Assembly (NCBI GenBank): GCA_963730995.1
Contig: CAVSUB010000005.1
Coordinates: 67,408-131,407 of the forward strand
Direction: 5' to 3'
Length of the DNA stretch: 64,000 nucleotides
Origin: an uncultured Acidobacteriota bacterium
GTDB lineage: Bacteria; Acidobacteriota; Vicinamibacteria; Vicinamibacterales; 2-12-FULL-66-21
Shown: in pieces, positions 18,243 to 37,822 of the stretch
Numbering within the stretch: position 1 is the stretch's first letter
Layout of the letters: each line of letters opens with the position of its first letter
Made by a program: the position numbers and the translations under genes
Notes under the pieces: model-generated
Seen by the model: only the letters and a program-made list of their open reading frames with translations
The model's database searches: none
What the model was told of the DNA's origin: nothing

Positions 18243-18272
18243 ATACAGGCCACTAGGATTCCCGACGTGACG

Positions 18273-19007: not shown

Positions 19008-19037
19008 TCCCGAAAGTCAAAGCCATGAAAAACCCAC

Positions 19038-19124
19038 ACAGGAGGATGGGAGGAGGGAGGAACTCCTTTTCTCAAAAAACATGCGGAAACCAAAGAAAGA
19101 TCCTCCTTCCTCCCATCCTCTTGT
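19038..19124. repeat. 24-bp purine-rich inverted repeat between convergent genes
   Basis: ACAGGAGGATGGGAGGAGGGAGGA versus TCCTCCTTCCTCCCATCCTCTTGT, 2 mismatches (both G-U compatible). Confidence 0.7.
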
Positions 19125-19166
19125 AAAGGTTTTCCTGTCAGTGAACGCCGGCGCTGAAGACACGCC

Positions 19167-22100
19167 TCACAGACCATCCAGGTATCGCCGGGCGTCCTGA
19201 GGTACTGCGGTAAATCGCAGCACGAACGAGCGATCCACCGGCGGGCGGCGCAGCACTTTTCCGTAGATTCCGGCGATGGGTCCCCCCTCGGTGGGCTTCA
19301 GCAGCAGCTTCAGATCGGTGAGGGGGGGCGGCGGCGTCAGGCTCTGGATCTCGGCCTCGTTCGTCGAGAGCCTGACGATCATCCCGTCCTGCTGCTCCCG
19401 CGCGACGTCCTTTCCTCTCACCCACTGAAACGACACGGGCAGCGCGGGCTCGACGTCGGTCCATTTGACCTCGCGCCGCGGGAGCTCGAGGCCGTGCACA
19501 CCGCCCAACCCGCCGATCTCGTACAGCGTTATGGGGTGTGTCACGCCTTTGGGCTCGACGGTCTGGTCGCCAAGGATCGTGAGCGGCGCCTTGACGGCGT
19601 CGCGAGTGGCGCCGGCGATGAGGATCTGACCGCCGATGGTGTACCCCTCGATCCGGCCCGCGAGGTTGACGTTGCTTCCCACCACTCCGTACTTCGCTCG
19701 TTTGCGCGAGCCGATATTGCCCACGACGACTTCCCCGGTGTTGATGCCGATACCCATCTCGAGCTCGGGCAGGCCGTTCTCCACATTCCACGCATTGACC
19801 CTGGGCATGGCCAGCTGCATCTCGAGCGCGCATGCGACTGCCCGCTCCGCGTCGTCAGGCCGCTGGAACGGCGCACCGAAGATCGTCAGAATCGCGTCGC
19901 CGATGAATTCGTCGATCGTTCCGTTATATTTCTGGATGATCGTCGTCATCTCGCTGAGGTAGTTGTTCAGCAGGGTGACGATGGTCTCGGGAGGAAGCGA
20001 GTCGGAGAACGCGGCAAAGCCGCGCAGATCCGACATCATGATCGTGACGGTCTTCTTCTGGCCGCTGAAATCCAGATCTTCCACGGACTTGAGGAGGTTG
20101 TCGGCGATCTCGCTCGTCAGGTAGCGGCCGAAGGTCTGCTCGATGAACCGGTTGCGGACCTCGAGCTGCTCCGTCCGCGCCCGCACCTTGTCCTCGAGGT
20201 GCTCGACGATTTCGGCGTTCTTGATCGACACGGCGATCTGTCCCGACAGGAGCTCCAGAAGCTCCGTGCGTTCGGGCGTGAACGCCGCGCTCGCCAGATC
20301 GTTCTCGAGATACACGAGGCCGATCAGCTGGCCCTGGTTCAGAATCGGCTGGCAGAGGATGGACCGCGTCTCCTTCTTCTGCACGTAAGGGTCCGCCATG
20401 AACCGTCGATCCTGTTGCGCGTCGTCGACAACGACGACCTGTTTCGTCCGCGCGGCGAAATGAACGACGCCGAGGGGTGCGAGGCCGGCGCCGTCCGGTG
20501 AGTCGATCGGAATCGACATGAGGACTGCGACGTCGTCGGATACGACGCTGCCCTCGGCCTCGACGAACAGCTCACCATCACGCGAGAGGAGAAGGACACC
20601 GCGCTGGGCCCCCGCGTTCTCGATCAGGATGCCGAGCAGGCGCTCGAGCAGGCGTCCGAGCACGACTTCGCCGGAGATGGTCTGCCCGGCCTTGATCAGC
20701 GTGGTGAGGTCGAGACTTGACACCCCGGATCGCGTCGTCGTCGTTGGCCGAGCGGGCGCGATCCTCGTCGTCGCTGTGCCGGAGGCTGCGCCGCGCGCGT
20801 CGCGGTACTCGGTGAGCAGCTGAGGAAACTCGACCTCGAGCTCTTCGATCTTTCGATTCGCCCCCCACAGCTGATAGCCGTAGCGGGCATCGCGCAGATA
20901 CATCGCGCCGACCCGCGACTTCGGACGACGCTCCATGACGAACCGCGCGGCGAGCTCGTTGGCGACCGCCTCGTCCTGCACGAAGCGGCTCTCGTGCGCC
21001 GCGTCGATCGCCTTGTCGTACAGGTCTGCCGCAGCCGTTTCGTCCCCGCTGATGCGGGCTATCTCGGCCTCGACCATCAGCCGCTTCGAGAGGTAGTTGT
21101 CGGGGCAACTGTCGGACCAAACCGTCAGCTGCGCGAGGTTCGCTCTGAGCTGCTCCATGGCCGCCACGCGATCCTCGTCGCTGCTTCCTTCCCAGAGCGC
21201 TGCCAGGGACAGCGACTGGTAGAGCAGGCGGTCCGCGAGATTCGGGTGATTGACGATGAAGCTCAGCATGCCCTCGATTTCACGAGTGGCGTCGAGAGCC
21301 TCCGCGGGACGGCCGAACAGGTACAGGGCCTGCGCCTTGAGGATCTTGTAGAAGCAGATCGCCATCGCGATCTGATGCTTCTCGCAGGACTGGAGAAAGG
21401 TGGCCTCGTCCACTCCGCCGCCGGCGAAGTCGAAGCTCGATTTCGTCCGTCCAGCCAGCGTAGACAGGACGATCTGGTGCGCCAGGATCCCGGCGCCGGC
21501 GCCAGGGTTCTGCGTGCGCGACGTGAACCCGAGCTGATCGGGCAAGCCGTCGAGCAGGTCGTCAAGGCGTCTGCCCGCGAAGGCATCCAGGACGACCCGG
21601 TACATGACCAGGTAGCCGGCCCAAAGGATGTCGCCCGAGTTGAGGCCCTCCTGGTAGCCCCTGTCGATGACCGGAATCGCGTGGCGGACGTGTCGGACCC
21701 ACGGCATCAGCTCGGAGCCGAGCACGAGACAGACTGTCGCCGTGGGCGCGCGGCCCTGGAACCTGTCGCAGAGGCGCAGCGCGAGCTCGCCGAACTCGTG
21801 GCCCTCTTTGTATCTCCCCATGAACGCGCCGATGATGAGGCCGTAGTTCGCGAACGAGAGGGCTGATTCCGGCGCGTTGCCGTGCTCGATCGAAATCCGG
21901 ACCGACGTGCCGACGATGAGCGGGAACAACTCCTGGTTGGAGAGGAACGCGGCGATGGTGAGATGGCGCAGGCAGCGCTGCGCCAGCGCCATCTCCGCGC
22001 TGTCGACGTCGGGATTATTGAAGAGCGACGCGGTGTCACGGCCGGCGAGCATGGCTCCCACCGTGCCCATGGCTTGCTGACCGGCCTGCTGCACGTTGGT

Positions 22101-24689
22101 CAGCGGCAGTTCGACACCCACCAGGGCCAGCGCCTGGCGGCCCGCATGGAGCGCCTCTTTGAACTGCGTGAGCAGGGTGTGCTGCGCGATCCGCGTGAAG
22201 TAGACCTCCGCCTTCTCGAGATCGGTTCGAGCCTGGTCCAGTGTGATGGCAACGATCTCGCTGCAGCGATCGAAATTGCCGTTCAGGTACTCGAGCTCGG
22301 CGCGCTGGCGGAACGCCTCGATCGTGAGCTCGTAGCTCTTTTGCCACCCGTCGTCACGAAGAAGGCCCTGAGCGATGCGGACGTACGAGAGGGCGGCGGC
22401 GTACGCCGACGCCTCGGATGCTTTGCGGGCGGCGTCGACATTGAGCTTCGCCAGGCCGGTTCGTTCGTCCTTGTCGGTGATCAGCTCGCGCCCGAAGTTG
22501 AGATGGTCGACGACTTCGAAGGTCCGCTCCTTGAGCGCATCAGCCGGCAACGTGGCCTGCAGGCGCCGGCCGATGGTCAGATGGACGTCACGCTGCCGGT
22601 CTTCCTCGATGAGGCCGTAAGCCGCCTGCTGCACGCGGTCGTGCTGAAACCCGAACTCCTGCACGACGAGCGGTGAGAGCACGTCCGCGGTGTCGGTGGC
22701 CGCGAGCTCGGACAGCGGACGGATCAGCTCCTCTTCTACGGCCGGTCGCAAACTCTCGAACGTCTCATGCGGCGTCGATTTCTGGATCAGGGCGAGCGTG
22801 TCGATGTCGAATCGATTGCCGATGCAGGCGGCGAGTTGCAGCGCCTCCTGCGTCGCGGGAGCGAGCCGTCTCAATTTGCCGAGCAGAAGGTCCACGACGT
22901 TGTCGGTGATCCGCGTGGACTTGATGGCCTGGATGTCCCACGTCCACCGCGAACGTTCTCCTGCCGCGGGAGGCGCCTCCTTGATGAGGCCCTCGTGATG
23001 CAGCGCCAGCAGGAACTGACGCACGAAGAGCGGATTTCCCTGGGTTTTCTGGACCACCAAACGAGCCAGCGCGGTCAACTGGGCAGCGTCGGCCTGGAGC
23101 GTATCGGCGAGGAGCCTGGCGACGTCGGCCAGGCCAAGAGGCGCGAGCGTCAGCGTCGTCACGGCGCCGCCGCCATCGCGGATGCCACGCAGCGTCAGCG
23201 ACAGGGGATGCATCGCGTTCACTTCGTTGTCGCGATACGCCCCGATGAGGAAAAGGCGGCTGATCCCGTCGTCGGTGAGAACGACGCGAAGCAGAGCGAG
23301 CGTGGCGGAGTCGGCCCACTGCAGATCGTCGAGAAAGAGGACGATGACCCTCTCGCGCGCGCAGAGGGCGCGCAGGAGCTGCCCGATGGCGCGGTTGAAG
23401 CGGTTCGTGGCTTCCGCCGCGCCGAGCTCCGGAACGGAGGGCTGCGGACCGACGATCAACTCGAGATCCGGCAGCACGTCGAGGATCACCCGCGCGTTCG
23501 GCTCCAGCGCCTCGATGAGATCCCGCCGCCAGACGGCGAGCCGCGCCTCGCTTTCCGTCAGGAGCTGGCGGACCAGGTCACGAACCGCCGCCACGAGACC
23601 CGAGTACGGGACGTTGCGCTGCAGCTGGTCGAACTTCCCGCTGATGAAGTAGCCCCGCGCCTTCGTGATCGGCTTGTGGACCTCGTGGATCAATGCCGAC
23701 TTGCCGACGCCGGAGTAACCAGCGACCAGGAGCATCTCCGCAGGGCCTCGGCGCGTGCGCTCGAAGGCCTCGAGCAGCCGCTCGACTTCGTTGTCGCGCC
23801 CATAGAGCCGTTCCGGGATCTGGAACCGTTCGCAGTGATCGTTCCGGCCCGGCTCGAACCGCTCGAGCCCGGCGGAGCTGCGCACTGTTTCCAGATCGGC
23901 CACCAGGCCTGCCGCGCTCTGGTAGCGGCCCTCGGCCTTCTTGGCCATCAGCTTGGAGATGACCTTGGAGAGCGCCAGCGAGACGTCCGGATTCCGCCGA
24001 TGCGCCGGGACGGGTTCGCGCGCGATCTGGGAGTGAACGAGCTCGATCTCGTCGTCTGCGTCGAACGGACGGCTCCCCGTGACCATCTGGTAGAACGCCG
24101 CGCCGAGTGAGTAGAAGTCCGTTCGATAATCGAGCGAGCGATTCATCCGGCCAGTCTGCTCGGGTGACATGTAGGCCAGAGTCCCTTCGAGCACGTCGGG
24201 GCTCTTCAGCACCGGCTGCTCCGTGGAGAAGCGCGTCGCGATGCCGAAGTCGATGATCTTGACCTCGCCGGTCGCGGGATTGATGACCAGGTTCGCCGGA
24301 CAGATGTCCTTGTGGATGATGTGAGCGCGGTGCACCTGCCCGAGCGCCACCGCCACCTGGATTGCGGTGTCGAAGAACTCGTCGAGTGACAGCGACCGGT
24401 CTTTCAGCAGGCTCGCAATCGACATCCCTCCGAAGTCCTCGAAGACCATCAGCAGCGTCTTCTCGTGGCGGCGGAGCTCGTAGCAGTGGATGATCCCCGG
24501 CAGGTCGAGGCTCTGGGTGATCTCGAACTCCCGCCGGTACCGCGCGAGCTCGCCGGTCGTCGGAAAGTCGTTCTTGAGGACCTTGATCACGACGGGAAGC
24601 CCGTCGCTGTCGCGGACACCCCGCAGTACCAGGGAATTCTTGCTCTCGTAGAGCCGCTCTCTGACCTGGAAGCCTTGAATGAAGGACAT
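19167..24689 (-). CDS. Ser/Thr kinase - AAA ATPase - helical repeats - GAF - class III nucleotide cyclase (HstK-like)
   Basis: HKDICPAN/DFG/YMSPEQTG; GYSGVGKS; LDDLQWAD; GAF (SILCQPI..YLEN); MSDLRGF, IDEFIGDA, KYGVVGSNVNLAGR. Confidence 0.92.
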   Translation of the reverse strand: MSFIQGFQVRERLYESKNSLVLRGVRDSDGLPVVIKVLKNDFPTTGELARYRREFEITQSLDLPGIIHCYELRRHEKTLLMVFEDFGGMSIASLLKDRSLSLDEFFDTAIQVAVALGQVHRAHIIHKDICPANLVINPATGEVKIIDFGIATRFSTEQPVLKSPDVLEGTLAYMSPEQTGRMNRSLDYRTDFYSLGAAFYQMVTGSRPFDADDEIELVHSQIAREPVPAHRRNPDVSLALSKVISKLMAKKAEGRYQSAAGLVADLETVRSSAGLERFEPGRNDHCERFQIPERLYGRDNEVERLLEAFERTRRGPAEMLLVAGYSGVGKSALIHEVHKPITKARGYFISGKFDQLQRNVPYSGLVAAVRDLVRQLLTESEARLAVWRRDLIEALEPNARVILDVLPDLELIVGPQPSVPELGAAEATNRFNRAIGQLLRALCARERVIVLFLDDLQWADSATLALLRVVLTDDGISRLFLIGAYRDNEVNAMHPLSLTLRGIRDGGGAVTTLTLAPLGLADVARLLADTLQADAAQLTALARLVVQKTQGNPLFVRQFLLALHHEGLIKEAPPAAGERSRWTWDIQAIKSTRITDNVVDLLLGKLRRLAPATQEALQLAACIGNRFDIDTLALIQKSTPHETFESLRPAVEEELIRPLSELAATDTADVLSPLVVQEFGFQHDRVQQAAYGLIEEDRQRDVHLTIGRRLQATLPADALKERTFEVVDHLNFGRELITDKDERTGLAKLNVDAARKASEASAYAAALSYVRIAQGLLRDDGWQKSYELTIEAFRQRAELEYLNGNFDRCSEIVAITLDQARTDLEKAEVYFTRIAQHTLLTQFKEALHAGRQALALVGVELPLTNVQQAGQQAMGTVGAMLAGRDTASLFNNPDVDSAEMALAQRCLRHLTIAAFLSNQELFPLIVGTSVRISIEHGNAPESALSFANYGLIIGAFMGRYKEGHEFGELALRLCDRFQGRAPTATVCLVLGSELMPWVRHVRHAIPVIDRGYQEGLNSGDILWAGYLVMYRVVLDAFAGRRLDDLLDGLPDQLGFTSRTQNPGAGAGILAHQIVLSTLAGRTKSSFDFAGGGVDEATFLQSCEKHQIAMAICFYKILKAQALYLFGRPAEALDATREIEGMLSFIVNHPNLADRLLYQSLSLAALWEGSSDEDRVAAMEQLRANLAQLTVWSDSCPDNYLSKRLMVEAEIARISGDETAAADLYDKAIDAAHESRFVQDEAVANELAARFVMERRPKSRVGAMYLRDARYGYQLWGANRKIEELEVEFPQLLTEYRDARGAASGTATTRIAPARPTTTTRSGVSSLDLTTLIKAGQTISGEVVLGRLLERLLGILIENAGAQRGVLLLSRDGELFVEAEGSVVSDDVAVLMSIPIDSPDGAGLAPLGVVHFAARTKQVVVVDDAQQDRRFMADPYVQKKETRSILCQPILNQGQLIGLVYLENDLASAAFTPERTELLELLSGQIAVSIKNAEIVEHLEDKVRARTEQLEVRNRFIEQTFGRYLTSEIADNLLKSVEDLDFSGQKKTVTIMMSDLRGFAAFSDSLPPETIVTLLNNYLSEMTTIIQKYNGTIDEFIGDAILTIFGAPFQRPDDAERAVACALEMQLAMPRVNAWNVENGLPELEMGIGINTGEVVVGNIGSRKRAKYGVVGSNVNLAGRIEGYTIGGQILIAGATRDAVKAPLTILGDQTVEPKGVTHPITLYEIGGLGGVHGLELPRREVKWTDVEPALPVSFQWVRGKDVAREQQDGMIVRLSTNEAEIQSLTPPPPLTDLKLLLKPTEGGPIAGIYGKVLRRPPVDRSFVLRFTAVPQDARRYLDGL

Positions 24690-24699
24690 TTTCTATTCC

Positions 24700-24780
24700 G
24701 GGGGGCTTCGCCCCGCCGGACCCCCCAGCGCCGGCGCTCGCGGGGGCCCCATGCCCCGCTTACGCGCGCCGTCGCGCCGC
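24700..24780. repeat. GC-rich palindromic intergenic repeat (GGGGGCTTCGCCCCGCCGGACCCCC type)
   Basis: Short hairpins GGGG-CTTCG-CCCC and AGCGCCGGCGCT between the halogenase and kinase genes. Confidence 0.45.
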
Positions 24781-26061
24781 CCGTCGTCGAGGCGTGTCGT
24801 AGTAACCGATTCCGTGGCCTACCTGGGCAAAATTGAGCTCCGAGAAATTGCCGAAGGGCCGGTAGATGCTCAGAAGCGGATAGACCTCCCTGTCCCAGGT
24901 CTCCTGATCCTTGCAGCCTGAGAGCGCGAGGGCTGGCAGCGTCCGCCCCGCTTCCACGAATTCCCCCATTTCTTCGAGATGGTCCCGGGCGATGTCGCTC
25001 TCGCTGGCGCGTTCCATGCCCTGCCGGGCGTACCGCCAGAATGCCGTGTCCCACAGGGAGCCACACGCATAGTGCCAGGCAACGAACAGCGAATTGCGGC
25101 AGACGAACCCTACCATACCCTCGTTGAAAGCCTCGAGTTCGTCGAGATCCGTGCTGCTTTCGGGACCGTGCTCCGCGATCCAGTGCGCCGCCGAGCGGAT
25201 TTCAACGATGGCGGTGGCGATTCCGGTTGCTTCGAGCGGCTCCAGGAACGAGGCCGAGTTCCCCACCCAGAAGATCCGGCCGTCGAAGAACCTGCGGCGG
25301 AGAAAGTTCGGGAAATTCAGCATTCCCCGGTGCGTCCAGCCTGTGACGCCCTCCTCCTTCAGACTCAACGTGAAGTCGGCCTCCACTTCGGCGTCGGAAC
25401 TGATACTGGGATTGAAGATGTAGCCGGTGGACGTCGCATCCTGCAGGGGGATGTGGAAGATCCAGCCGTGCGGACGCGCCGCCGCGCGAGTCACTCCCGA
25501 CAGAGCACCCGGCGGCAGCCAGCGAAGGTTCGCCCGGCTTGTGGGGATCCAATCCAGCTGGATCAGATCGCCCGGTGCTTCGGCCGCGGGCCGTGGGAAT
25601 CCTCGCGCGTCGAACACGTAGTCGCAGAGATGCGTCGTCTTGTCGCCGAGCGTCACGAGGACGCCATGGGGCAGCGTTCGCAATTCCTCCACACGCGCGT
25701 CGATGTGCTGCGCACGAACGTGCTCGGCGATCACGCGGACCACCTTCGTGGCGTCGAAGTGGTAGCCGATCAGCCGTACGGGCTGGAACCGGTTCACGAA
25801 CTCGGATCCGTTGGCGCCCCAGCCGTCGAAGCGGGTGCCGTTCTTCAACGTGGCGCCGCAATGCTCGGCGAGATCGCTGAAGCCGAGGCCGGTGACCTCC
25901 TCCAGCCAGACCGGGAATCGCGGGGTCGTACCCTCGCCCACGCCGATGGTCGGGATGCTCGAGTCGAACACGTGCAGGAGCTCTGCCTCCGGCAGACTCC
26001 GCGTCACGTGCGCGGCCGCAATGAATCCGGCAGTGCCACCGCCGACGACTGCGATCCTCAT
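24760..26061 (-). CDS. Tryptophan-halogenase-family flavoprotein
   Basis: GGGTAG, IGVGEGT, ATLKNG (catalytic Lys position), DARG, GWIFHIP, FLEPLEATG. Confidence 0.85.
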   Translation of the reverse strand: MRIAVVGGGTAGFIAAAHVTRSLPEAELLHVFDSSIPTIGVGEGTTPRFPVWLEEVTGLGFSDLAEHCGATLKNGTRFDGWGANGSEFVNRFQPVRLIGYHFDATKVVRVIAEHVRAQHIDARVEELRTLPHGVLVTLGDKTTHLCDYVFDARGFPRPAAEAPGDLIQLDWIPTSRANLRWLPPGALSGVTRAAARPHGWIFHIPLQDATSTGYIFNPSISSDAEVEADFTLSLKEEGVTGWTHRGMLNFPNFLRRRFFDGRIFWVGNSASFLEPLEATGIATAIVEIRSAAHWIAEHGPESSTDLDELEAFNEGMVGFVCRNSLFVAWHYACGSLWDTAFWRYARQGMERASESDIARDHLEEMGEFVEAGRTLPALALSGCKDQETWDREVYPLLSIYRPFGNFSELNFAQVGHGIGYYDTPRRRAARRRA

Positions 26062-27359
26062 TGTGCGCAGAGATCCGTCAGGGTTTCGATCGGTCGAAGG
26101 AGATGCTGCACCGCCAGAAGGGCATGAGCGATTTCGGAGCTCTTCGGAGCAGCCTCGCAGAACCGGGCGAGACAGTCATCGTTGTGCGCGGCAGGATTCC
26201 CGTCAGCGTCGCAGCCGGTCGCAAGCCGCCACGGCTGAACGTGGAATGCCGCGAGGTGCTTCTGGAATTCCCCTCCGGCGACGTGCAGGCTGACTTCGCG
26301 ATCGAGGAACTCGCGGAGGAGAACCACGCCGCGGGCGGCCACCGTCATGCCCAGCCCGAAATACGGATCGAGCGCGCATGCCGAATCACCGAGAGCGACG
26401 AGCCCCGCCGGCCAGTCAGGGGCGCGATCGTAGTGCCTCAATCGATTGCCGGCGATCCCGTAGTGCTGGATTGGCCCGAGAGGCTTTGCCCGCTCGAGCG
26501 CTGCTCGTAGCCTGCCCCCGCCGAGGCCATCGGTGAACTCCAGAAAGGCCTTGTCGTCTGCAGGAAGCGGGTCTCCGGCAGGAGCCAGGAGCACGACGCC
26601 CCAGCAATCGTGCTCGGCGCGCAGCATCATGGCGGCGCGAGCGTGACTGCCCGCCGGCGCGACTGAAAGGCAGTGCCAGTCGGGTGCGTCGTATGGCGCC
26701 AGCTCGAACCAGCGCGACACGTACTGCGTTCCGGAATCGACGACAGTCTCGTCCACCGGCGATGCCGCCCTGTCGGGCACCGTGCCGAGCCACTCCGGGA
26801 GTCTCGAGCCACGGCCGCTCGCGTCCACGACGAGATCGGCTGCGACGGACGTCTCTCCGGAACCGTCGACTCCGGTCGTTCGGACGCCGGCCACCCGTCG
26901 TCCGGTTCCGAGCAACGCGACGACCTGCTGGCCCTCCAGCACCTGCACGTTCGCCTGCGCCTCGAGAGCACGCCGCAGGACGCGCTCGAGCAAAGACCTG
27001 GAACAGGCGTACGTGATGATGCCGGACGGCGTCCGCGGCAGCCAGCCAGCGGGGAACTGCATTACCGCGTCCGCGGATGCGTCGATGGGAACCGCGCCGA
27101 GCCCGACAAGGGCTTCTCTCCAGCCGGGCACGACTTCGTCGAAAGCTGCGGCTCCTCCCGCCATCAGCAGATGGAGGCACCGGCTCTGCGGCGCGCCTCG
27201 GCGCGAAGCAGGTGCGGGCGAGGCTGGATCAGCGGGATACGGGTAACGCTCGAGAACGGTCACGCGCTCGAATCGAGCCGCGAGCATGCGTGCGGCCAGC
27301 AGCCCGCCGATTCCCCCGCCGATGACGATTCCCTGCCCGGTCATGGTCGTAGAGTGCAC
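26058..27359 (-). CDS. FAD-dependent oxidoreductase/monooxygenase
   Basis: GGGIGG..VLER, PQSR.LH, DASGRGS, GDSACALDPYFGLGMT; ATGA overlap with the halogenase; alternative start 27344. Confidence 0.85.
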   Translation of the reverse strand: MHSTTMTGQGIVIGGGIGGLLAARMLAARFERVTVLERYPYPADPASPAPASRRGAPQSRCLHLLMAGGAAAFDEVVPGWREALVGLGAVPIDASADAVMQFPAGWLPRTPSGIITYACSRSLLERVLRRALEAQANVQVLEGQQVVALLGTGRRVAGVRTTGVDGSGETSVAADLVVDASGRGSRLPEWLGTVPDRAASPVDETVVDSGTQYVSRWFELAPYDAPDWHCLSVAPAGSHARAAMMLRAEHDCWGVVLLAPAGDPLPADDKAFLEFTDGLGGGRLRAALERAKPLGPIQHYGIAGNRLRHYDRAPDWPAGLVALGDSACALDPYFGLGMTVAARGVVLLREFLDREVSLHVAGGEFQKHLAAFHVQPWRLATGCDADGNPAAHNDDCLARFCEAAPKSSEIAHALLAVQHLLRPIETLTDLCAQ

Positions 27360-27370
27360 GGTGCCGCGAG

Positions 27371-28006
27371 TCAGCCCTTGTGGCCGCGAGGAACCCTGAG
27401 ATCCTTCGGGATCTCGTACGAAATGCGCGTGAATGTCTGCGCTATGACGAATCGGACCGTCCCCGTCGGAAAGTACGCGGGAGGATCGCCGCCTCGTCGT
27501 GACGAAGAGAACTGTCGCCGCGCGGCGGCCGTCGCGGGCGCGGCCATGACATAGGGCCCGATGATGTGCCGTTCGTTCGGGCCCACGAAATACTGGTTGT
27601 TGTAGTAGTCGGCGTAGTAACGACCGTTCTTGTCTTTCGTCCTGAGGTGGAACAGATAGATGCCCGGTCGTGTCTCCACGCCGTCGATGAGCGTCCCCGA
27701 GTGTTCGTCCTCGCCGCCGCAGGACTTGCCGGTGACCTTGAGGTCGACGGTCAGCTGCGAGAAGTTGCGCACGGCCGCGACGTCGGCCGTGTTATAGCCG
27801 GAATCGTCGAGCAGGTTCTCAACGCTGTCCTCCTGGTCCTGCTGGAAGTGGAGGAGCTTGTTCGGTACGTGCCAGTAGATGGCGACACGGCTCTGAATCG
27901 AATCCTGGTAGACGCCCTTGGCATCGTAGACCGTGGCGATCCCGGCCCAGTATCCGACCATCAGATCGTACGGAACGGCGTCGTTGAAGCTCTTTTGCAT
28001 GGTCAT
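27371..28006 (-). CDS. Hypothetical beta-rich protein in the RiPP operon
   Basis: ATG 28006 with GGAGAG RBS; aromatic-rich alternating pattern; N-terminal GYW.G (lipocalin-like GxW). Confidence 0.7.
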   Translation of the reverse strand: MTMQKSFNDAVPYDLMVGYWAGIATVYDAKGVYQDSIQSRVAIYWHVPNKLLHFQQDQEDSVENLLDDSGYNTADVAAVRNFSQLTVDLKVTGKSCGGEDEHSGTLIDGVETRPGIYLFHLRTKDKNGRYYADYYNNQYFVGPNERHIIGPYVMAAPATAAARRQFSSSRRGGDPPAYFPTGTVRFVIAQTFTRISYEIPKDLRVPRGHKG

Positions 28007-28076
28007 GGACTCTCCACCTTGCTGCGCTGCCGGAGGGCGGCCCTCCCGGACGCGCCCTGCATCCACACATTCGGAT

Positions 28077-30356
28077 CTAGAACTGGACCACGAACGGGTT
28101 CAACTCGCCCTCCTGGACGGCTCGAGGGAGCCAGCCTTGCTGTACGGGGACGTCATAGAGACGGCCCGGTCCGAAGCGGGCCCAGAAGTGGCGAAGGCCC
28201 GGCGCGACCACCCGCACGACGGGGAGCCCGACGTCGGGTCGGGTCTGATTGAGGACGAGAATCTCGATGCCTCGGGCCGTTGCAATCCTCTGACACAGGA
28301 GGATGTCTTTCTGGAGATCGTCTGAAGCGACCTGCTCGAAGTCCTGCAGCCGCCTCGGAGTCGCCTCGGGGTCGGGCGCCAGGTAACCGGCGTCCGCAAT
28401 CCTGACGGTGCGCCACCAACGAAGGGCGTCGGGGCCTCCTCTATAACTGCGCGTCGATTCCGGCCCGTTCGCAGCCGGCACCGCCTCCAGCGACTGATTC
28501 ACCTCGGTCAGCGCTCTTGTCAACGCGACGGCGGGATCGAGATGCGATCCGAAGCCATAGATGACATCCTCTTCGGGCGCGTCCACCCGTCTGGATATCG
28601 CCGCGAAGGTTGGCACTCCGATGTCGCTCGTGACGTCGAGCGCCCAGAGGTCGCGGGCCAGCTCGCCGTAGTGACGGACGAGTCCGGAAATGTAGGGATC
28701 GTCCGCGCTCTCGAGATCCACTGCGGGTCGTCTCAACCGGTTGTACCACCAGATGGCGACGGCATCGCGCTCCACCAGCTCGAGAAATCCCTGCAGAACG
28801 GCTTCCTCGAGGACCGAACCCGCGGCGCACCCGTTGGAGTCGGCACGTGCAAAGAGCGGATCCGCGCTGCGATAACCGAAGTAGCAGTACGACGTTGGCA
28901 GGTAGCGGGTTTGCTCGGCCGAGAGGGACCACAGCGGCGTCCACTCGATCTCCACGTCCTCTCGAAACGGCTCCGGCACCCAGTGGGCCTTGTGGTCCCG
29001 CCGATTGTGGGAGTCGCGCTCCGCATACTGCCGGTCGCTGTATCTCAGACAGGCGTTCGGGTGAATCGCTGCGTCCCCGAGGTCCGCGAACGAAGCGCGG
29101 ACACGCGGTTCGGTTCCGTCGAAGACGCCGCAATACCGCTCCAACGATTCAGCCAACGCGCTCGCGCGGGCCTGTTCCGGACTCTTCCCTTTCCCTCCCG
29201 AACGCCGCCGCATGCCTTCCCGGAGGAAAAAGCGATCGTCGTGCATGTCCGAAAAGTTGTGATCGGCCGCGAACGTCGGTGTGAGCGACGGCCGGCCGTC
29301 AATCGAACCTCCGCTCCGTTCTCCGGGTACCAGCGCGCTCACAATGCCCGTGATCGGACTGACGTGACGATCGAGCTGCTCGAGCACCTCACGAGGCTGC
29401 TGAGCGCGGTGACCGCCGTCAGATGCGTGGATCTTGGGTCGCGGCTGAAAGCGCACCGGCCGCGGAATCAGGAGCTCGTTCGACTCGGAGCCGCCGCAGG
29501 ACGGGCACTGCGGACGACGAGTGAGGATGTGCCGATGACGTTCGAGCGTGAGGACGTTCGTCGACAGCACACGATCGAGGAGCGCCGATTGCCCTCCTGA
29601 ACCGATCCAGCGCGTGATCTGGGTGGCCGCTTCGGCGAGGGATGCGTGCCCGGTTGAGGCGATCGATCCGGCGGGCGGGGCTATCGGAAGACTTGTGCCC
29701 GTACGCAGCGCCAGATACTGCTCGAGTTTCCGGTGCCCGCGGAGCCGTTGAGCGAGACACTCCCAGCAGCCGGTCCGGCCGGGCACGAAGAGCGGCCCGA
29801 TCCAGGTCTCCATCCCCATCGGCTTCACCAGAAGCCAGGGCTTTCCCGACGCCAGCGATCGCACGTTCCACGCCGCAAGTGCCGGGCGGAGGTAATCGTC
29901 CGTCACCGCGACAGCAACATCACCGTCGAGCCCCACTGAAATCCCGTTCTCGCCGAGCGTCGCCGTGAGAGATTCGATCTCGACGTCGCCGAACGGCATC
30001 GCCGAAACGCGCGCGCGGGCGAGGCGCGACCGCGCCACGGCGGGAGCCACACCGGCGTTTTCCCAGAATGTCGCCGTGGAAGGCCTGCCGCCGCCGGCGC
30101 CCTCAGCGAGGTACCCGGTCGTCTTCAGATGGTCGAGGGCCGCGAAAACCTGCTCTGCAGGATAGACCTCGCAGAGTCCGTCGAAGATCGCTTCGACGTC
30201 GTGCGCGCCGTCGAGCATGGGCGCGAGAGCAGCGTAGATCGGATCCGGCATCCACGCCTGCCGGCCTTCCCCGATCAGAAAGAGCCCATCATCGGAGTCG
30301 ATGATGGGTCGCACGCCGCACTTGAACCGGGGACGAGCCGACGCCTCCTCGTCCAT
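28077..30356 (-). CDS. Fused RRE/ocin-ThiF-YcaO cyclodehydratase (TOMM/cyanobactin PatD-like)
   Basis: TDDYL, GPLFVPGRTGCWECL, RPQCPSC, SPITGIV, AESLERY, DSNGCAAG, ELVERDA, RFGPGRLYDVP. Confidence 0.95.
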   Translation of the reverse strand: MDEEASARPRFKCGVRPIIDSDDGLFLIGEGRQAWMPDPIYAALAPMLDGAHDVEAIFDGLCEVYPAEQVFAALDHLKTTGYLAEGAGGGRPSTATFWENAGVAPAVARSRLARARVSAMPFGDVEIESLTATLGENGISVGLDGDVAVAVTDDYLRPALAAWNVRSLASGKPWLLVKPMGMETWIGPLFVPGRTGCWECLAQRLRGHRKLEQYLALRTGTSLPIAPPAGSIASTGHASLAEAATQITRWIGSGGQSALLDRVLSTNVLTLERHRHILTRRPQCPSCGGSESNELLIPRPVRFQPRPKIHASDGGHRAQQPREVLEQLDRHVSPITGIVSALVPGERSGGSIDGRPSLTPTFAADHNFSDMHDDRFFLREGMRRRSGGKGKSPEQARASALAESLERYCGVFDGTEPRVRASFADLGDAAIHPNACLRYSDRQYAERDSHNRRDHKAHWVPEPFREDVEIEWTPLWSLSAEQTRYLPTSYCYFGYRSADPLFARADSNGCAAGSVLEEAVLQGFLELVERDAVAIWWYNRLRRPAVDLESADDPYISGLVRHYGELARDLWALDVTSDIGVPTFAAISRRVDAPEEDVIYGFGSHLDPAVALTRALTEVNQSLEAVPAANGPESTRSYRGGPDALRWWRTVRIADAGYLAPDPEATPRRLQDFEQVASDDLQKDILLCQRIATARGIEILVLNQTRPDVGLPVVRVVAPGLRHFWARFGPGRLYDVPVQQGWLPRAVQEGELNPFVVQF

Positions 30357-30382
30357 GTGAAGCACTCGAGGCGAAGCTCGTC

Positions 30383-30610
30383 TCAGCAGCAGGCGGGAGG
30401 CGTCGTCGCGACAGGAGACTTATGGAGCGAGCCGGCATCGCCCTTTGGTCGAGGGGCGATCCTCACTACCTTATCGAAGGTCTTGCCGGCTTCCTTGGCG
30501 TACTTCTTCACGGCCTTGGTCGGATCAGTTTCCAGGAGCTTGCGGAATTCCGGGTCACGCCATGCCTTCGCATGGATCTGGCCCCAATCCTTCTTGGTTG
30601 GTGCGCCCAT
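30383..30610 (-). CDS. NHLP-leader-like RiPP precursor peptide (75 aa, C-terminus PPACC)
   Basis: AKAWRDPEFRKLLETDP..A leader motif; AAGGAGA RBS; immediately upstream of the YcaO gene. Confidence 0.9.
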   Translation of the reverse strand: MGAPTKKDWGQIHAKAWRDPEFRKLLETDPTKAVKKYAKEAGKTFDKVVRIAPRPKGDAGSLHKSPVATTPPACC

Positions 30611-30676
30611 CGATCTGTCTCCTTTTGAAAGGGGGAGTCGATTACGCGGTGCAGTGCCGCGGCCCGACTGAGCCGT

Positions 30677-30706
30677 AACGTATGCTTTGCTGCCTCGCTC
30701 TGTCAA
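30677..30706 (-). promoter_or_regulatory. Sigma70-like promoter for the precursor operon
   Basis: TTGACA (30706-30701), 18-bp spacer, TACGTT (30682-30677). Confidence 0.5.
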
Positions 30707-30771
30707 GAAACATAATCCGCCGGTACTGGGTCAGGTTGCCTGCGCGCCCGGGTCAGGAGGGACGGAGAGAG

Positions 30772-31030
30772 CGGAGTTCACAACGGAGGAACGGAGAGAA
30801 CGAAGGCGAAACGGAGAAGACGCAGCGGCGTGACCGCGCGAAGCGCGGTCGAGTGACGAGGGGCGCGACGGGCGCAAGTGGGTGGGGGGCGTGGGCCACT
30901 TGTGCCCGTCGCGACCCCTCGCCACTCGGACGCCGGCCGCGGCCGGCGTCACGCCCCACCCGGCCGAGTCGAACCACATCCTCTTCTCCGTTCGTCCCCC
31001 GTTGGCTCCGTTCCTCCGTTGTGAACTCCG
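30772..31030. repeat. MITE/REP-like structured element with perfect 25-bp terminal inverted repeats
   Basis: CGGAGTTCACAACGGAGGAACGGAG at 30772-30796 and its reverse complement at 31006-31030; internal hairpin 30851-30928. Confidence 0.75.
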
Positions 31031-31092
31031 TTGTCTTCGCAACCTCCTGCTCGCGTCCGCCCCAGCTTCTCGGCAGTCGATCTGATGACCCA

Positions 31093-32403
31093 CTACCAAT
31101 CCGCCCGCGCGTGCACACGAAAGCGTCCTGACTCTTCGCGCGCTGGGATCAACCGGAACCGGCGAGCCACCAGAAGGCTGATTACGGTCATTTGCAGCAT
31201 CGCCAGGCGGGCGCCGATGCAGGCGCGAGGGCCGGCGCCGAACGGGAGGTACACCGACCGGAGTGTGGCACCGGAGCCTCCTTTCATGAAACGCTCGGGA
31301 AGGAACCGATGCGGTTCCGGAAAGTGGCGCGGGTCGAGATGAAGGAGCTGCGGGCTCACCCACACGGCGGCATCGCGGGCGAACTCGAACCCACCCAGCT
31401 CGAAGGCGCTGTCCACCTCCCGGTAGAGGATGGGAGCGGGTGGATGCAGACGCATGCTCTCCTTCAACGCGGCAAGGCAGTACGATTCCAGGAGATCGGA
31501 CGAACCGGGGACTCCGCCCGCACAGAGCCGATCGGCCTCGGCGGCAATGGCCGCACCGAGATCGTTGCCGGCGATGTCGCTCCAGAGGTGCAGGAGGCTG
31601 AAGGGAACCGTCAGATGTCCGGCGTAGAGCATCTGTATGACTTCTCCCACGATTTCGTCGCGCGTGAGCCCTCCGCCGTCGGGAAACCCCGCCTGAACGA
31701 GGTCCGAGAGGACGTCTCCGCGTCCTTCACGGCTCGCGATGCGCTCGTCGATGATGCGTATCGCCGTCTCCATCCGCCGCGGAGCACGAGGCCGTACCAT
31801 GACCAGTGGCCCGCTCGGATCGCCTCCCGGAGCGCTGGCGTAGTCTTCGCCGTACAATTCGTCGAACGGAACGATGCCGGAGCGGCGTTCGCTCGGACCG
31901 TACCCCTCGAGTTCCGCGTCCAGCACGACACGGGCGGCGATTCTGGCCGTGAGAATGCGCAGTTCCCTCGCCAGATCGATGACCTTGTCGGGCGCCGGCT
32001 CGCACTCCCAGGAATCGAGCATGGCCTCAGCACATTCGGCCACGACCGGCAGGCGATCCGACACGGGTCGCGGACGGAAGGATGGACGCAGTGCCTGCCT
32101 GTGCGCCTGCCAGGCGGATCCCTCGAGCGTCGTGAGGCCGTCGCCCCAGTGGCCGCGATTGGAGTCCTTGACGAACTCCGGTTTGCGGAGACAGGCTTCA
32201 CGCTCGAACAACAGCTCGCGAACCTGGGATGCGCCGTTAACGAGGATGCTGGGCGAGCGTCCGAGATCGAACGCAACGACATCTCCGTACCGATCCGCGA
32301 GCGCCCTCAGGAATCCGAACATGTCCGTCTGCCAGGCCTCGTAGTTGACGATGCCCGAATGCTCACCCCGTGGGCCCGGCGGACGTGTCGGCATCAGGCT
32401 CAT
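31093..32403 (-). CDS. Cytochrome P450
   Basis: YAGHLT I-helix, ESMR (ExxR), FLPERF, PFGAGPRACIG heme Cys. Confidence 0.95.
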   Translation of the reverse strand: MSLMPTRPPGPRGEHSGIVNYEAWQTDMFGFLRALADRYGDVVAFDLGRSPSILVNGASQVRELLFEREACLRKPEFVKDSNRGHWGDGLTTLEGSAWQAHRQALRPSFRPRPVSDRLPVVAECAEAMLDSWECEPAPDKVIDLARELRILTARIAARVVLDAELEGYGPSERRSGIVPFDELYGEDYASAPGGDPSGPLVMVRPRAPRRMETAIRIIDERIASREGRGDVLSDLVQAGFPDGGGLTRDEIVGEVIQMLYAGHLTVPFSLLHLWSDIAGNDLGAAIAAEADRLCAGGVPGSSDLLESYCLAALKESMRLHPPAPILYREVDSAFELGGFEFARDAAVWVSPQLLHLDPRHFPEPHRFLPERFMKGGSGATLRSVYLPFGAGPRACIGARLAMLQMTVISLLVARRFRLIPAREESGRFRVHARADW

Positions 32404-32420
32404 CCCTTCGATATCCTCGC

Positions 32421-33758
32421 ATGACCTCTGATTCGGTTCACTGGACGTACGCGCTCGCGGCCGACGTGCGCGTCGAACCGGGCGACGGGGGTATCTTCCT
32501 TCGCACTCCCACTGACGAGATCTGGATGGAAGGCGCGGTCGAAATCGGAGCGCTCGAACTGCTCGCGAGCGTTGACAGCAGCGAGGCCCAGCTCCACGCC
32601 CGACTTCGGAGTGGTCCCGACGCCGACGATGCGGAGACGCGCTGCGCGGCGCTGCTCTTTCAACTCGATCGGCTGGGACTCCTCTCGCGAACCATCAATA
32701 GCAAGGAACGCCGGCTGGTGTCGTGTGTGCCGCTGCGGCCTCCACCAGGCCCGCCTCCGGAGCGCCCACCCGACGGGCCGCTCCGACTCTCGCATCGTGC
32801 GCTCGCTCGAGTCGAAGCCCACGTCCTGGTCCTCGAGCTCCCGGGCGCCTGGGCGCGAATCGCGATTCATGACCGCGACCTGTTTCCGCTCCTGCACGAT
32901 TTGGCAGTTGGCCGTTCGGCGTCCCAGGTGGCAGTGGCCGGTCATTCCGGGCAGGCCATTCTGGCGGTCCTTGCGCTCATGGATTGGTGTGGGCTCTTCG
33001 GCGAACCGGAAGCCGACGGATGGTCCGGCCACGATCTGCTCTTTCACGCCCGCACTCGGAGAGGGTACGCACGCGTAGCGCTCGGAAAAACCGGGTTTGG
33101 GGCGCCGGCGCCGGATGCCATCGCGATCGAAGGCCGGGACCATGTCGCACTCGAGCCGCCGGATCTCGCGCGACTCCTCCTCGAGGATCCGCCGTACGCG
33201 CTGGTTTCCGAGCGGCGGCAATCCCTCAGGCGGCAGGGATCGATTCCGATTACGTCGAACCAGCTCTCGGAGTTTCTGTTTCGGACGCTTCACGAGCAGG
33301 GCGGCAGGCGTCCTTACCCGAGCGGGGGCGCCTGCTATCCGTTGAAGGCATACGTCGGCATCCACCAGTGCAGCGGCGTTGCGCCGGGCCTCTACGCGTA
33401 CGCACCGACCCGCCACGAGCTTGTCAGGTTGAGCGAACCAGGGCCTCGGCTCGACAGCCTGCTTTCGGACGCGGCGGCGGCGGCCAACGTCGAGCGGCCT
33501 CCACAGATTCTGATCGTGCTCGCCGCGCGCTTCACTCGCACGCAACGGGTCTACGGAGATCTCAGCTACAGCCTGATCCTCAAAGAGGTCGGCGCGGTGT
33601 TTCAAGCGGCGATGATGGCGGCGGCGGCGATGAGGCTGGCGGCCTGTCCGCTGGGTTGTGGAGACTCGCTTCAGTTCTCCGAGCTCGCCGGCGTGGACCC
33701 GCTGACCGAAACGTCGGTGGGAGAGATGATGGTGGGATCCATCGACGACAACGTTTGA
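32421..33758 (+). CDS. SagB/ThcOx-family azoline dehydrogenase with N-terminal RRE-like region
   Basis: HDLLFHAR.R.G, RRQSLR, RPYPSGGACYPL, YSLILKEVG.VFQ. Confidence 0.88.
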   Translation: MTSDSVHWTYALAADVRVEPGDGGIFLRTPTDEIWMEGAVEIGALELLASVDSSEAQLHARLRSGPDADDAETRCAALLFQLDRLGLLSRTINSKERRLVSCVPLRPPPGPPPERPPDGPLRLSHRALARVEAHVLVLELPGAWARIAIHDRDLFPLLHDLAVGRSASQVAVAGHSGQAILAVLALMDWCGLFGEPEADGWSGHDLLFHARTRRGYARVALGKTGFGAPAPDAIAIEGRDHVALEPPDLARLLLEDPPYALVSERRQSLRRQGSIPITSNQLSEFLFRTLHEQGGRRPYPSGGACYPLKAYVGIHQCSGVAPGLYAYAPTRHELVRLSEPGPRLDSLLSDAAAAANVERPPQILIVLAARFTRTQRVYGDLSYSLILKEVGAVFQAAMMAAAAMRLAACPLGCGDSLQFSELAGVDPLTETSVGEMMVGSIDDNV

Positions 33759-33773
33759 CTGCCAGTCACATCA

Positions 33774-33840
33774 GTTGGTGTAGCGCGGGGTCTTCAGACC
33801 CCGCGCCGGCGGGGCTTGAAAGCCCCGCCCTACAACCAAC
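33774..33840. repeat. GTAG-type REP doublet (REPIN)
   Basis: GTAGCGCGGGGTCTTCAGACCCCGCG ... CGGGGCTTGAAAGCCCCGCCCTAC. Confidence 0.75.
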
Positions 33841-33912
33841 AAATGCGGGCTCAGGGACTGCCCGGGGACGCGGCCCGGGTGTCGCGAACTCGGACCGAAC
33901 GCTATCCAACGC

Positions 33913-36675: not shown

Positions 36676-37821
36676 TCAGCCCTTCGCGGGCGCATAGCGC
36701 ACCGCCAGGACGGTGATGTCATCCGACTGCTTCGCACCGGCCGTGAAGTCGCCGACGTCGGCGAGCACCCGTTTGACGATGTCCGAGGCTGACCCGCCGG
36801 CCGCCAGCGCCGCCAGCAGGCGTTCCTCGCCGTAGAAATCTTCCGCCGTGTTCATCGCCTCGGACACGCCGTCGGAGAACAGTACGAATGTATCGTCCGG
36901 CTCGAGCGAGAGCGTCTCGCGTTCGACGGGGTTGAACGCCATCAGCCCCGCTGGTCGTCCCGACGAAGGACACGCGAGCCGCGGCGGCCGGCCGCGCGAG
37001 ACGATCGCGAGCTGGTGATGTCCGGCTCCCGCACACGATACGCGGCCCTGCGCCAGGTCGAACACCAGGCATTGGAGCGTGACGAACATGCCTCGCGGGT
37101 TCTGCTCGGCGAGCTCGTCGTTGAGGCGCATCAGGATCTCGTCAGGCTCGGGGATCCGCCTCGCCAACGTCCGCAGGACAGTTACGACGACAGCCATGAA
37201 GAGCGCGGCGGGAATCCCCTTCCCAGACACGTCGCCCAGGGCGACGACGATCCGGTCGTCCGACACGCGCAGGACCTCATAAAGGTCGCCGCCCACCTCA
37301 CGGGCCGGCTCGATGACCGCATGCACGTCCAGACCTGTGCCCCTCGTTGCCGCCGCGAGATCGGCGGGTAGGATGCCCATCTGGATTTCGCGCGCGATTC
37401 GCAGGTCGCGGGCCATTGCTTCGCGGACGGCATCGGCATACGCCTTGGCCTTCAGCAGCGACCGGACGCGCGCTTTGACCTCGAGCACTTCGAATGGTTT
37501 CGTCAGGTAGTCGTTCCCGCCGACCTCGAATCCGCGGGTCTTGTCCTTGACGTCTTCGAGCGAGCTCAGAAACATCACCGGCAGCTCGCGGGTCGATTCT
37601 TCTGCGCGAAGCTGGCGGCAGACCTCGTAGCCGTCGATGCCGGGCATGACGATATCAAGGAGCACGAGGTCCGGCGGGCCCTTCTCGATGCTTTGAAGGG
37701 CGGCGGCGCCGTCGAGGGCGACGCTCAGCTTGTAATCGTCGCGCAGGGCCTGCACCAGGATGTCGATATTCGTTTTCGCGTCGTCGACGATGAGTACCCG
37801 GCTCGCAGAAAGATCCTTCAT
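36676..37821 (-). CDS. Response regulator-PP2C (RsbU/SpoIIE) phosphatase
   Basis: LIVDD, LLDIVMP, YLTKPF; VGGDLY, GDVSGKG, FSDGVSEA, SDDIT. Confidence 0.93.
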   Translation of the reverse strand: MKDLSASRVLIVDDAKTNIDILVQALRDDYKLSVALDGAAALQSIEKGPPDLVLLDIVMPGIDGYEVCRQLRAEESTRELPVMFLSSLEDVKDKTRGFEVGGNDYLTKPFEVLEVKARVRSLLKAKAYADAVREAMARDLRIAREIQMGILPADLAAATRGTGLDVHAVIEPAREVGGDLYEVLRVSDDRIVVALGDVSGKGIPAALFMAVVVTVLRTLARRIPEPDEILMRLNDELAEQNPRGMFVTLQCLVFDLAQGRVSCAGAGHHQLAIVSRGRPPRLACPSSGRPAGLMAFNPVERETLSLEPDDTFVLFSDGVSEAMNTAEDFYGEERLLAALAAGGSASDIVKRVLADVGDFTAGAKQSDDITVLAVRYAPAKG

Positions 37822-37822
37822 G

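Follow-up and report, generated by a model that had tools for sequence, protein, structure and literature searches.

An open reading frame (ORF) on the minus strand at positions 30383 to 30610 of the window, i.e., the whole 64,000-nucleotide stretch of DNA analysed here (contig CAVSUB010000005.1 of an uncultured Acidobacteriota bacterium), probably encodes the full-length precursor of a conserved, horizontally mobile cassette for a peptide made by the ribosome and modified after translation (RiPP), which is predicted to carry a tandem thiazol(in)e tail and further tailoring. The gene content also suggests that a true bithiazole could be formed at the C-terminus of the precursor, which we propose tentatively and slightly on the doubtful side.

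The ORF translates exactly as quoted in an earlier sequence-only reading of this DNA and gives 75 amino acids, in which Cys74 and Cys75 are the sole cysteines and are immediately followed by the stop codon. The AWRDPEF...DP element named in that reading is present, and the precursor has neither an ELxxVAGG nor another Gly-Gly motif and no residue after the Cys-Cys pair. The "PxxP" element is not literal; the precursor reads A-P53-R-P55-K, and only P55 of these prolines is conserved at ≥90%. The leader (approximately residues 1 to 55) is helical and resembles both the nitrile hydratase leader peptide (NHLP) type and the nitrile hydratase α subunit (NHase-alpha). A Shine-Dalgarno-like AAGGAGA lies approximately 7 nucleotides 5′ of the ATG codon, and the genome of the window contains one copy of the precursor. 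Scanning positions 30250 to 31200 for promoters and terminators gave no promoter-like site and nothing informative. The peptide had been described as truncated, which is wrong, since 75 to 76 amino acids is the native length of a conserved family whose 45 relatives mostly have 72 to 76 residues.

These relatives, obtained by a word-index and HMMER search, make up a family of 46 sequences together with that of the window, with 54 to 85% identity across phyla. The expected conservation of PPACC was borne out: the exact PPACC end, with the stop directly after CC, is found in 43 of the 46 sequences, the others being one 42-residue fragment and two proteins that diverge part-way through. Nearly invariant columns of the family alignment occur only at residues 1 to 55 and 71 to 75 and are absent at residues 56 to 70, and the 15 residues ahead of PPACC vary among the members. 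The usual RiPP pattern is inverted at this end of the precursor, where the last five residues are fixed and the preceding linker drifts. Because no conserved residue lies between positions 56 and 70, a fixed core of approximately 5 to 8 residues is the best reading; thus, the short core of the sequence-only reading is well supported.

A genome scan with one genome per species yielded 21 loci, of which 15 encode PPACC, 2 PPWCC, and 1 PVACC; the remaining loci comprise one with two PPSCC copies, one with two PPTCC copies, and one with a frameshifted copy. When metagenomes were scanned with PPSCC-type relatives as seeds, 28 loci were obtained, some of them near-duplicates, with 17 (P/A)PSCC, 5 PPACC, and 5 PPWCC tails and 1 broken tail; i.e., 27 of the 28 are (P/A)PxCC. 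The PPSCC, PPTCC, and PPWCC sister clades adjoin the same enzyme genes as the PPACC clade, and taken across the loci these tails define P-P-x-C-C as the family signature. Tandem precursor pairs were observed in some of the PPSCC and PPTCC loci (L016, L018, L048 to L051, L054, L019, and L059), and the first copy is frameshifted in L019 and L059.

An exhaustive profile search for the wider superfamily gave 186 matches at E ≤0.001. Among the 149 listed representatives (P0052 to P0200), the tail is PPACC in 13, another CC in 42, a single C in 38, and neither CC nor C in 56. NHLP-like peptides that are short and terminate in Cys or Cys-Cys are thus numerous and diverse, and the class looks large and chemically unexplored. 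Two long proteins of unrelated architecture, both with an NHLP-like motif 1, were also observed: P0058 (769 residues) is membrane-anchored and has four repeats that each end in ...CANGGPCG, and P0117 (675 residues) has a C-terminal NHLP-like domain that ends in ...HCSDLC. The nearest clusters of the precursor in the ESM Atlas are unnamed, and an NHLP cluster scores just 0.78.

The genes of the cassette in the window are listed in Table 1.

Table 1. Positions of the cassette genes in the window
Feature	Positions	Strand	Remarks
Precursor peptide gene	30383..30610	minus	75 aa (amino acids); leader ~1-55, linker 56-70, C-terminal PPACC
Fused E1-like/YcaO heterocyclase, cyanobactin D type	28077..30365	minus	762 aa; likely true start ATG 30356
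ThcOx/SagB-type FMN (flavin mononucleotide) azoline dehydrogenase	32370..33758	plus	divergently transcribed; PF22767, PF00881
Cytochrome P450	31093..32403	minus	directly upstream of precursor; PF00067, 162 bits
DUF3598-like calycin β-barrel protein	27371..28006	minus	~211 aa; start chosen from orthologues
Class A flavin monooxygenase	26058..27359	minus	related to polyether epoxidases Lsd18/LasC and MonCI
Flavin-dependent halogenase-like enzyme, short	24760..26061	minus	433 aa; PF04820, 154.6 bits
Kinase/AAA_16 STAND/helical repeats/GAF/class III cyclase protein	19167..24689	minus	1840 aa; Pfam domains

The heterocyclase gene is the next gene after that of the precursor and lies on the same strand. 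Its product matches PF02624 with 342 bits, and TIGR03604 (274.2 bits) and TIGR03882 (151.9 bits) both above their cut-offs; the best-matching structures are LynD (PDB accession number 4v1t; 630 bits), TruD (599 bits), and MusD (578 bits). Alignments of orthologues by tblastn begin at residue 4 of the annotated protein. The dehydrogenase scores 128.8 bits against TIGR03605 (cut-off, 78.4) and is encoded in 17 of the 21 genome loci, including all 15 PPACC loci. For the P450, which is found in 20 of these loci and is missing only from the cyanobacterial locus L021, the best PDB match is 7wzl (120 bits), and the score against the NCBIfam model of the RiPP P450 ApyO is 114 bits, compared with a cut-off of 525. 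The genes that mark an azol(in)e RiPP, or thiazole/oxazole-modified microcin (TOMM), are therefore all at hand, i.e., a YcaO cyclodehydratase and its E1-like partner, a SagB-type dehydrogenase, and a Cys substrate, and the two terminal Cys are the only candidate substrate residues in the fixed precursor end.

The monooxygenase has FAD-binding Pfam matches and, by phmmer against the PDB, matches 8wvb (Lsd18/LasC) with 189 bits and MonCI with 167 bits. The halogenase-like enzyme matches tryptophan halogenases of the PDB with 77 to 98 bits, including the lanthipeptide halogenase MibH (5uao). In the alignment, a Lys residue corresponds to the Lys of the K-x-G-x-x-F-x-x-W stretch of solved halogenases, EPLE is kept, and the WxWxIP motif reads GWIFHIP, in which the second Trp is replaced by Phe; the marks of a flavin-dependent halogenase are a catalytic Lys, a conserved Glu in the EPLE stretch, and WxWxIP. 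The enzyme is approximately 90 residues shorter than tryptophan halogenases and has a weak full-length match to the monooxygenase QhpG.

As determined by tblastn, the conserved gene order is dehydrogenase (divergent), P450, precursor, heterocyclase, barrel, monooxygenase, halogenase-like enzyme, and giant protein. The 21 loci span Acidobacteriota, Gemmatimonadaceae, Burkholderiales and other Betaproteobacteria, seven Ruegeria, Granulosicoccus, Xanthobacteraceae, Myxococcaceae, Rhodoplanes, and a Xenococcaceae cyanobacterium. The cassette is therefore found in at least 5 phyla, and cultured Ruegeria and Granulosicoccus strains are among the carriers, while within the phylum of the window the precursor was found in only 1 of 401 sampled genomes, namely the window's own. 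When all ORFs of the loci were compared, nothing was conserved past the dehydrogenase or past the giant protein, and no protease, exporter, or cyclic-nucleotide effector was among the conserved genes; with neither protease nor exporter in the cassette, the product would be released by unlinked functions or kept on the peptide. A PEARL (pearlin-type) scaffold and thioamidation were considered and rejected, since the conserved cassette genes include no LanB-like and no TfuA-like gene, respectively. In the alphaproteobacterial locus L013, the genes immediately after the cassette (16375 to 19436) are those of a phage-type integrase and a DndB-like protein, which fits a mobile island. Soil metatranscriptome contigs from several studies (data sets X4 and X5, seemingly one set filed twice, and X17 and X19) cover positions 24500 to 34000 of the window at 95 to 99% likeness; they give a weak hint that close relatives of the cassette are transcribed in soil, as such contigs are blind to level and strand and may include carried-over DNA.

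The giant protein is the best conserved large cassette protein in 14 of 15 loci. It is 64% identical to its Ruegeria counterpart, compared with 36 to 55% for the cassette enzymes, and full-length identity in cassette-bearing genomes of other phyla is 63 to 83%; four genomes of other groups align over the full length at 63 to 74%. The best relatives in the 401 sampled genomes of its own phylum are 29 to 46% identical and stop at approximately residue 1526. With the precursor in only one of these sampled genomes and close counterparts of the giant protein in other phyla, the sequence comparison argues that the whole block, the giant protein included, is horizontally mobile. Among 22 loci with room on both sides, which include near-duplicate metagenome loci, so that the counts are not fully independent, a STAND-cyclase protein lies beside the cassette in 20: a kinase-STAND-GAF-cyclase protein right after the halogenase-like gene in 15, and a SAM-cyclase-AAA_16 protein upstream in 5, with neither in the other 2.

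The domains of the giant protein are of the same kinds as those of TIGR03903, but their order is different, and the protein stays below the cut-off of that family: it scores 200.7 bits in 3 stretches against a cut-off of 705.75, and the upstream SAM-cyclase-AAA_16 variant of L013 (approximately 1150 residues) scores 520.1 bits, which is also below the cut-off. Five orthologues keep the cyclase motifs, which we take to be catalytic by comparison with the class III cyclase motifs. The catalytic loop of the kinase domain (residues 126 to 133) is HKDICPAN, and HKDI-(S/C)-PxN in the family; none of the 10 aligned orthologues has the Lys that is usual in HRDxKxxN, and the domain may be atypical or inactive. 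Approximately 140 C-terminal residues past the cyclase domain (19167 to 19600) are conserved in five orthologues and have no Pfam match. PADLOC matched the giant protein only to a generic kinase (PD-T4-6) and to PycC-like cyclase domains and did not match the biosynthetic enzymes at all; a defence-system reading was dropped, as these generic matches do not support it. Complex prediction with the helical sensor region of the giant protein (residues 480 to 1345) and the precursor family returned "no answer" with a score of 0.00, which is evidence neither way.

The barrel protein has no match in Pfam or NCBIfam. Its AlphaFold2 model (predicted local distance difference test score, pLDDT, of 80.6) takes the shape of a calycin-type β-barrel, and the best Foldseek matches are 2o62 (DUF3598), BFA1, the S-type bilin lyase CpeS, nitrobindin, and the spirocyclase OlmO, with likeness that does not go beyond the fold (TMq of approximately 0.5). 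The nearest ESM Atlas cluster is DUF3598_N (0.94). The superfamily search revealed three proteins of 282 to 289 residues (P0063, P0083, and P0155) in which a barrel is fused in front of a PPACC-type precursor; BLASTP gave an E value of 4e-21 between P0063 and the barrel of the window, and hhalign gave a probability of 99.3 between P0083 and the barrel family. One of these fusions has the end PPICCS, in which CC is followed by one more residue. Such natural single-chain fusions argue that the barrel and the precursor act together physically. The AlphaFold2 model of P0063 has a pLDDT of 74.1 and a predicted TM-score (pTM) of 0.54, and the position of the tail is uninformative, the last five residues having a pLDDT below 50. 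Gene context around the barrel varies in two loci. L065 (1 to 4973) contains the end of the heterocyclase, a barrel, the precursor, a second barrel, the monooxygenase, and the halogenase-like enzyme, with the two barrels flanking the precursor, and L011 (12516 to 12840), from a Ruegeria metagenome-assembled genome, has no barrel match, with just approximately 320 bp between the heterocyclase and the monooxygenase.

Formation of thiazoline and then thiazole at the two Cys residues is plausible because PPACC is fixed, the heterocyclase is LynD-like, and SagB/ThcOx is encoded in all 15 PPACC genome loci. The helical NHLP-like leader would dock on the N-terminal leader-binding domains of the heterocyclase, and the YcaO domain, with ATP, would cyclodehydrate Cys75 and Cys74, each onto the backbone carbonyl ahead of it, to give two adjacent thiazolines. 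In the PPACC clade, the FMN dehydrogenase could then oxidise these to a C-terminal 2,4′-bithiazole or a thiazole-thiazoline. The P450, the monooxygenase, and the halogenase-like enzyme may tailor this end and/or the Pro-Pro pair by hydroxylation, halogenation, or oxidative decarboxylation of the terminal ring, while the barrel may hold or present the peptide and the STAND cyclase either sense the product or regulate the cluster. The tandem terminal thiazol(in)es of the sequence-only reading are thus made plausible by the azoline machinery and the fixed tail, but a plain bithiazole is unlikely as the end product because four further proteins are co-conserved (the P450, monooxygenase, halogenase-like enzyme, and barrel) and the dehydrogenase is often missing; these four imply more tailoring beyond azoles. 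Bithiazole scaffolds had also been regarded as otherwise known from nonribosomal peptide synthetase and polyketide synthase pathways; ribosomal bithiazoles exist in thiopeptides, and this part of the reading is overstated.

Several observations weigh against a bis-azole precursor of the NHLP kind. The only genes in every complete locus are those of the precursor, the YcaO enzyme, the barrel, the monooxygenase, and the halogenase-like enzyme, and the cyanobacterial cassette of L021 consists of just these five. The dehydrogenase is absent near L016, L018, L019, and L021 among the genome loci, in 6 of 8 metagenome loci with at least 5 kb upstream, and in many PPSCC and PPTCC loci; therefore, aromatic azoles are not obligatory for the wider family. 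As the universal monooxygenase, halogenase-like enzyme, and barrel have no textbook role in azole formation, the chemistry at Cys-Cys could differ. It is moreover a presumption that a LynD-type enzyme acts on a Cys with a free C-terminal carboxylate. The assignment of the leader is also partial. The precursor contains motif 1, (I/V)xKAWxDxxF..L.., as IHAKAWRDPEFRKLLETDP, with columns that are nearly invariant in the family (for the definition of motif 1, see PMC2887384, Table 3), and so the NHLP-type assignment made from the sequence holds for this motif, but the curated models for NHLP and for its Burkholderia branch (NHLP-Burk) failed to recognize the precursor: it scores 17.6 bits against TIGR03793 (cut-off, 50.9; model positions 7 to 33 of 77 only) and 15.9 bits against TIGR03795 (cut-off, 41). 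The score against Pfam NHase_alpha is 20.8 bits (cut-off, 27.2), and all three matches are confined to motif 1. Motif 2 (ELSDEQLxxVAGG) and a variable core are absent, the precursor ending at Cys75. Comparison of the family with six NHLP-Burk sequences by hhalign gave a probability of 70.9 over only 29 columns, which again correspond to motif 1.

Other explanations of the ORF must be weighed against the predicted azol(in)e tail. A chance ORF, or the decayed remnant of a longer NHLP gene, might be suspected from its shortness, from the GC-rich DNA full of spurious ORFs, and from hidden Markov model scores below threshold; the chance is negligible, as this is refuted by the conservation of the protein across phyla with its length and stop kept, the fixed position in the cassette, and the ribosome-binding site. 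An ordinary linear azole peptide of the NHLP-type TOMM class would be cut after GDAG (residues 57 to 60) to give the 15-residue core SLHKSPVATTPPACC with heterocyclised Ser, Thr, and Cys. The G-D-A-G sequence looks like a site for cleavage of the Gly-Gly or Gly-Ala kind, the 15 residues after it include 2 Ser, 2 Thr, and 2 Cys, and some members of the heterocyclase family also act on Ser and Thr. But neither the site nor the Ser/Thr residues are conserved (the family consensus at GDAG is K-G-V-x-x-x-x-L, and the Ser/Thr positions read ATT, ATA, AVV, AKV, HRS, or QV), which makes such a core highly improbable, and no C39-peptidase transporter or other protease is conserved in the cassette. It is also improbable, to a lesser degree, that Cys-Cys escapes heterocyclisation and instead forms a metal-binding or vicinal-disulfide redox end, or is oxidatively rebuilt by the three oxygenase-type enzymes into another sulfur heterocycle, in which case YcaO would activate some other amide. 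The monooxygenase, the halogenase-like enzyme, and the barrel are indeed more universal than the dehydrogenase, many members have His-rich stretches ahead of the tail (LHKH, HHHPHPPSCC), and the window has a TonB-dependent receptor next to the cluster; the receptor is, however, not conserved at other loci, the conserved cassette genes include no TfuA-like or other partner, and the YcaO enzyme, with its strong LynD, TruD, and MusD matches, is of the azoline-forming, E1-fused cyanobactin type.

A different role for the product would make the cassette a self-contained signalling module, in which the modified peptide is not exported but serves as the ligand or cofactor of the co-inherited STAND cyclase: the tailored C-terminus, peptide-bound or cut off, would be sensed by the helical-repeat/GAF part and would switch cyclic-nucleotide synthesis. 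We regard this as unlikely, although a good deal of gene context agrees with it. A STAND-cyclase adjoins the cassette in 20 of 22 loci in two architectures, and NHLP-Burk loci contain a third arrangement, kinase-cyclase-STAND, which NCBIfam names "TOMM system kinase/cyclase fusion protein". The giant protein, which in 14 of 15 loci is the best conserved of the large proteins, lacks close relatives among the 400 other sampled genomes of its own phylum and keeps its cyclase motifs in 5 orthologues; no protease, exporter, or cyclic-nucleotide effector is conserved among the loci compared; and conservation covers the whole peptide rather than the tail alone. On the other hand, L020 and L021 contain the biosynthetic genes with no STAND-cyclase protein nearby, the linkage suits a cluster regulator equally, and the kinase domain, with its catalytic-loop Lys replaced (HKDI-S/C-PxN), may be inactive. 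The more specific proposal that the C-terminus, held by the barrel, converted to a bis-azol(in)e, and tailored by oxidation, acts as the specific ligand for the STAND cyclase transferred along with it, with NHLP-Burk as a sister version, is distinctly unlikely.

The PPxCC peptides define a compact RiPP family that is strongly conserved and has five invariant residues as its C-terminal core (PPxCC), and the family, its enzyme set, the barrel-precursor fusions, and the STAND cyclase co-inherited across phyla appear to be new. No published description of PPACC, PPSCC, PPTCC, or PPWCC peptides, or of the combination of YcaO, DUF3598 barrel, polyether-epoxidase-like monooxygenase, and halogenase-like flavoenzyme, the P450 and azoline dehydrogenase being optional, was found in the article texts searched, supplements apart; the additional files of PMC2887384 and PMC4603692 may list precursors that bear on prior cataloguing. 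The literature likewise gave only annotation-level mentions of the "TOMM system kinase" or TIGR03903. According to the article text of PMC2887384, the Cys-Cys end on NHLP-like TOMM precursors lacking Gly-Gly has been in print since 2010, and the present family provides the first broad comparative handle on a point open since then, namely NHLP-like TOMM precursors that end in Cys-Cys and travel with a kinase/cyclase protein. The cultured Ruegeria and Granulosicoccus carriers make the product and the role of the giant protein directly testable. If the signalling proposal were true, RiPP chemistry would be tied directly to second-messenger synthesis.

The surroundings of the cassette in the window differ from those at other loci. 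The adjoining TonB-dependent receptor (33913 to 36432), a response regulator with a SpoIIE phosphatase domain (36676 to 38094), and a hybrid histidine kinase with 4HB_MCP, HAMP, GAF, HisKA, REC, and Hpt domains (37823 to 41491) are not conserved there, and a metallophore reading drawn from the receptor was rejected for this reason. Downstream of the cassette (11408 to 14619 and 15840 to 19007) are an SNF2 helicase with a SWIM finger, a PLD-family protein, a second Ser/Thr kinase with TPR repeats, and an alpha/beta hydrolase.

Among known systems, mycofactocin is made from MftA, a conserved peptide with fixed C-terminal residues and no dedicated exporter, by radical SAM enzymes. The invariant C-terminal end of the PPxCC peptides is similar, but the enzymes (YcaO and flavoenzymes) are entirely different, and the analogy is logical only. 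Bottromycin biosynthesis involves C-terminal thiazole formation by YcaO and then oxidative decarboxylation by a P450; a C-terminal Cys-derived thiazoline is predicted here together with a P450, but there is no follower to remove, and the bottromycin P450 is not among the 60 PDB matches listed for the P450 of the window. The likeness to cyanobactins lies in the heterocyclase, which is a clear homologue of LynD, TruD, and MusD, and in the ThcOx domain of the dehydrogenase. The precursor, however, is NHLP-like rather than PatE-like and has a single invariant core at the C-terminus, with no recognition sequences and no macrocyclisation, and PatA/PatG-type proteases are absent from the conserved cassette genes and the Pfam-scanned neighbours. 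Canonical NHLP precursors (TIGR03793, e.g., those of proteusins) share motif 1 and the helical NHase-alpha-like leader, whereas the precursor of the window has neither the ELSDEELxxVAGG motif 2 nor a variable follower core.

The similarity to NHLP-Burk goes further. NHLP-Burk (TIGR03795) is the Burkholderia branch of the nitrile hydratase leader peptide precursors, which, as described in the article text of Haft, Basu, and Mitchell (2010; PMC2887384), has an NHase-like motif 1 and no motif 2 or Gly-Gly, ends in Cys or Cys-Cys, and is encoded beside fused cyclodehydratases. In 4 of 301 sampled genomes of that order, sequences score above the cut-off, and the retrieved loci contain a kinase-cyclase-STAND protein, a precursor pair or fusion that ends in ...LFTCC or ...PFTC, and then a YcaO enzyme with 32 to 35% identity to the heterocyclase of the window; they have no match for the P450, dehydrogenase, barrel, monooxygenase, or halogenase-like genes. 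The two families differ in that NHLP-Burk precursors (approximately 113 to 123 residues) form a tandem or fused pair of approximately 110 residues each with a 15-residue insert, compared with one 75-residue gene in the window, in the tail (...FTC(C) as opposed to PPxCC), and in the domain order of the giant protein, which departs from kinase-cyclase-STAND. The docking and cyclodehydratase domains of the NHLP-Burk enzymes, TIGR03882 and TIGR03604, are both present in the heterocyclase of the window. Common to both families are motif 1 (AWxDPEF..L..DP), the lack of Gly-Gly, the C-terminal Cys(-Cys), the adjacent fused E1-like/YcaO enzyme, and the adjacent STAND-cyclase protein. The PPxCC family is related distantly to the TOMM precursors of the NHLP and NHLP-Burk types, and NHLP-Burk is its closest described relative.

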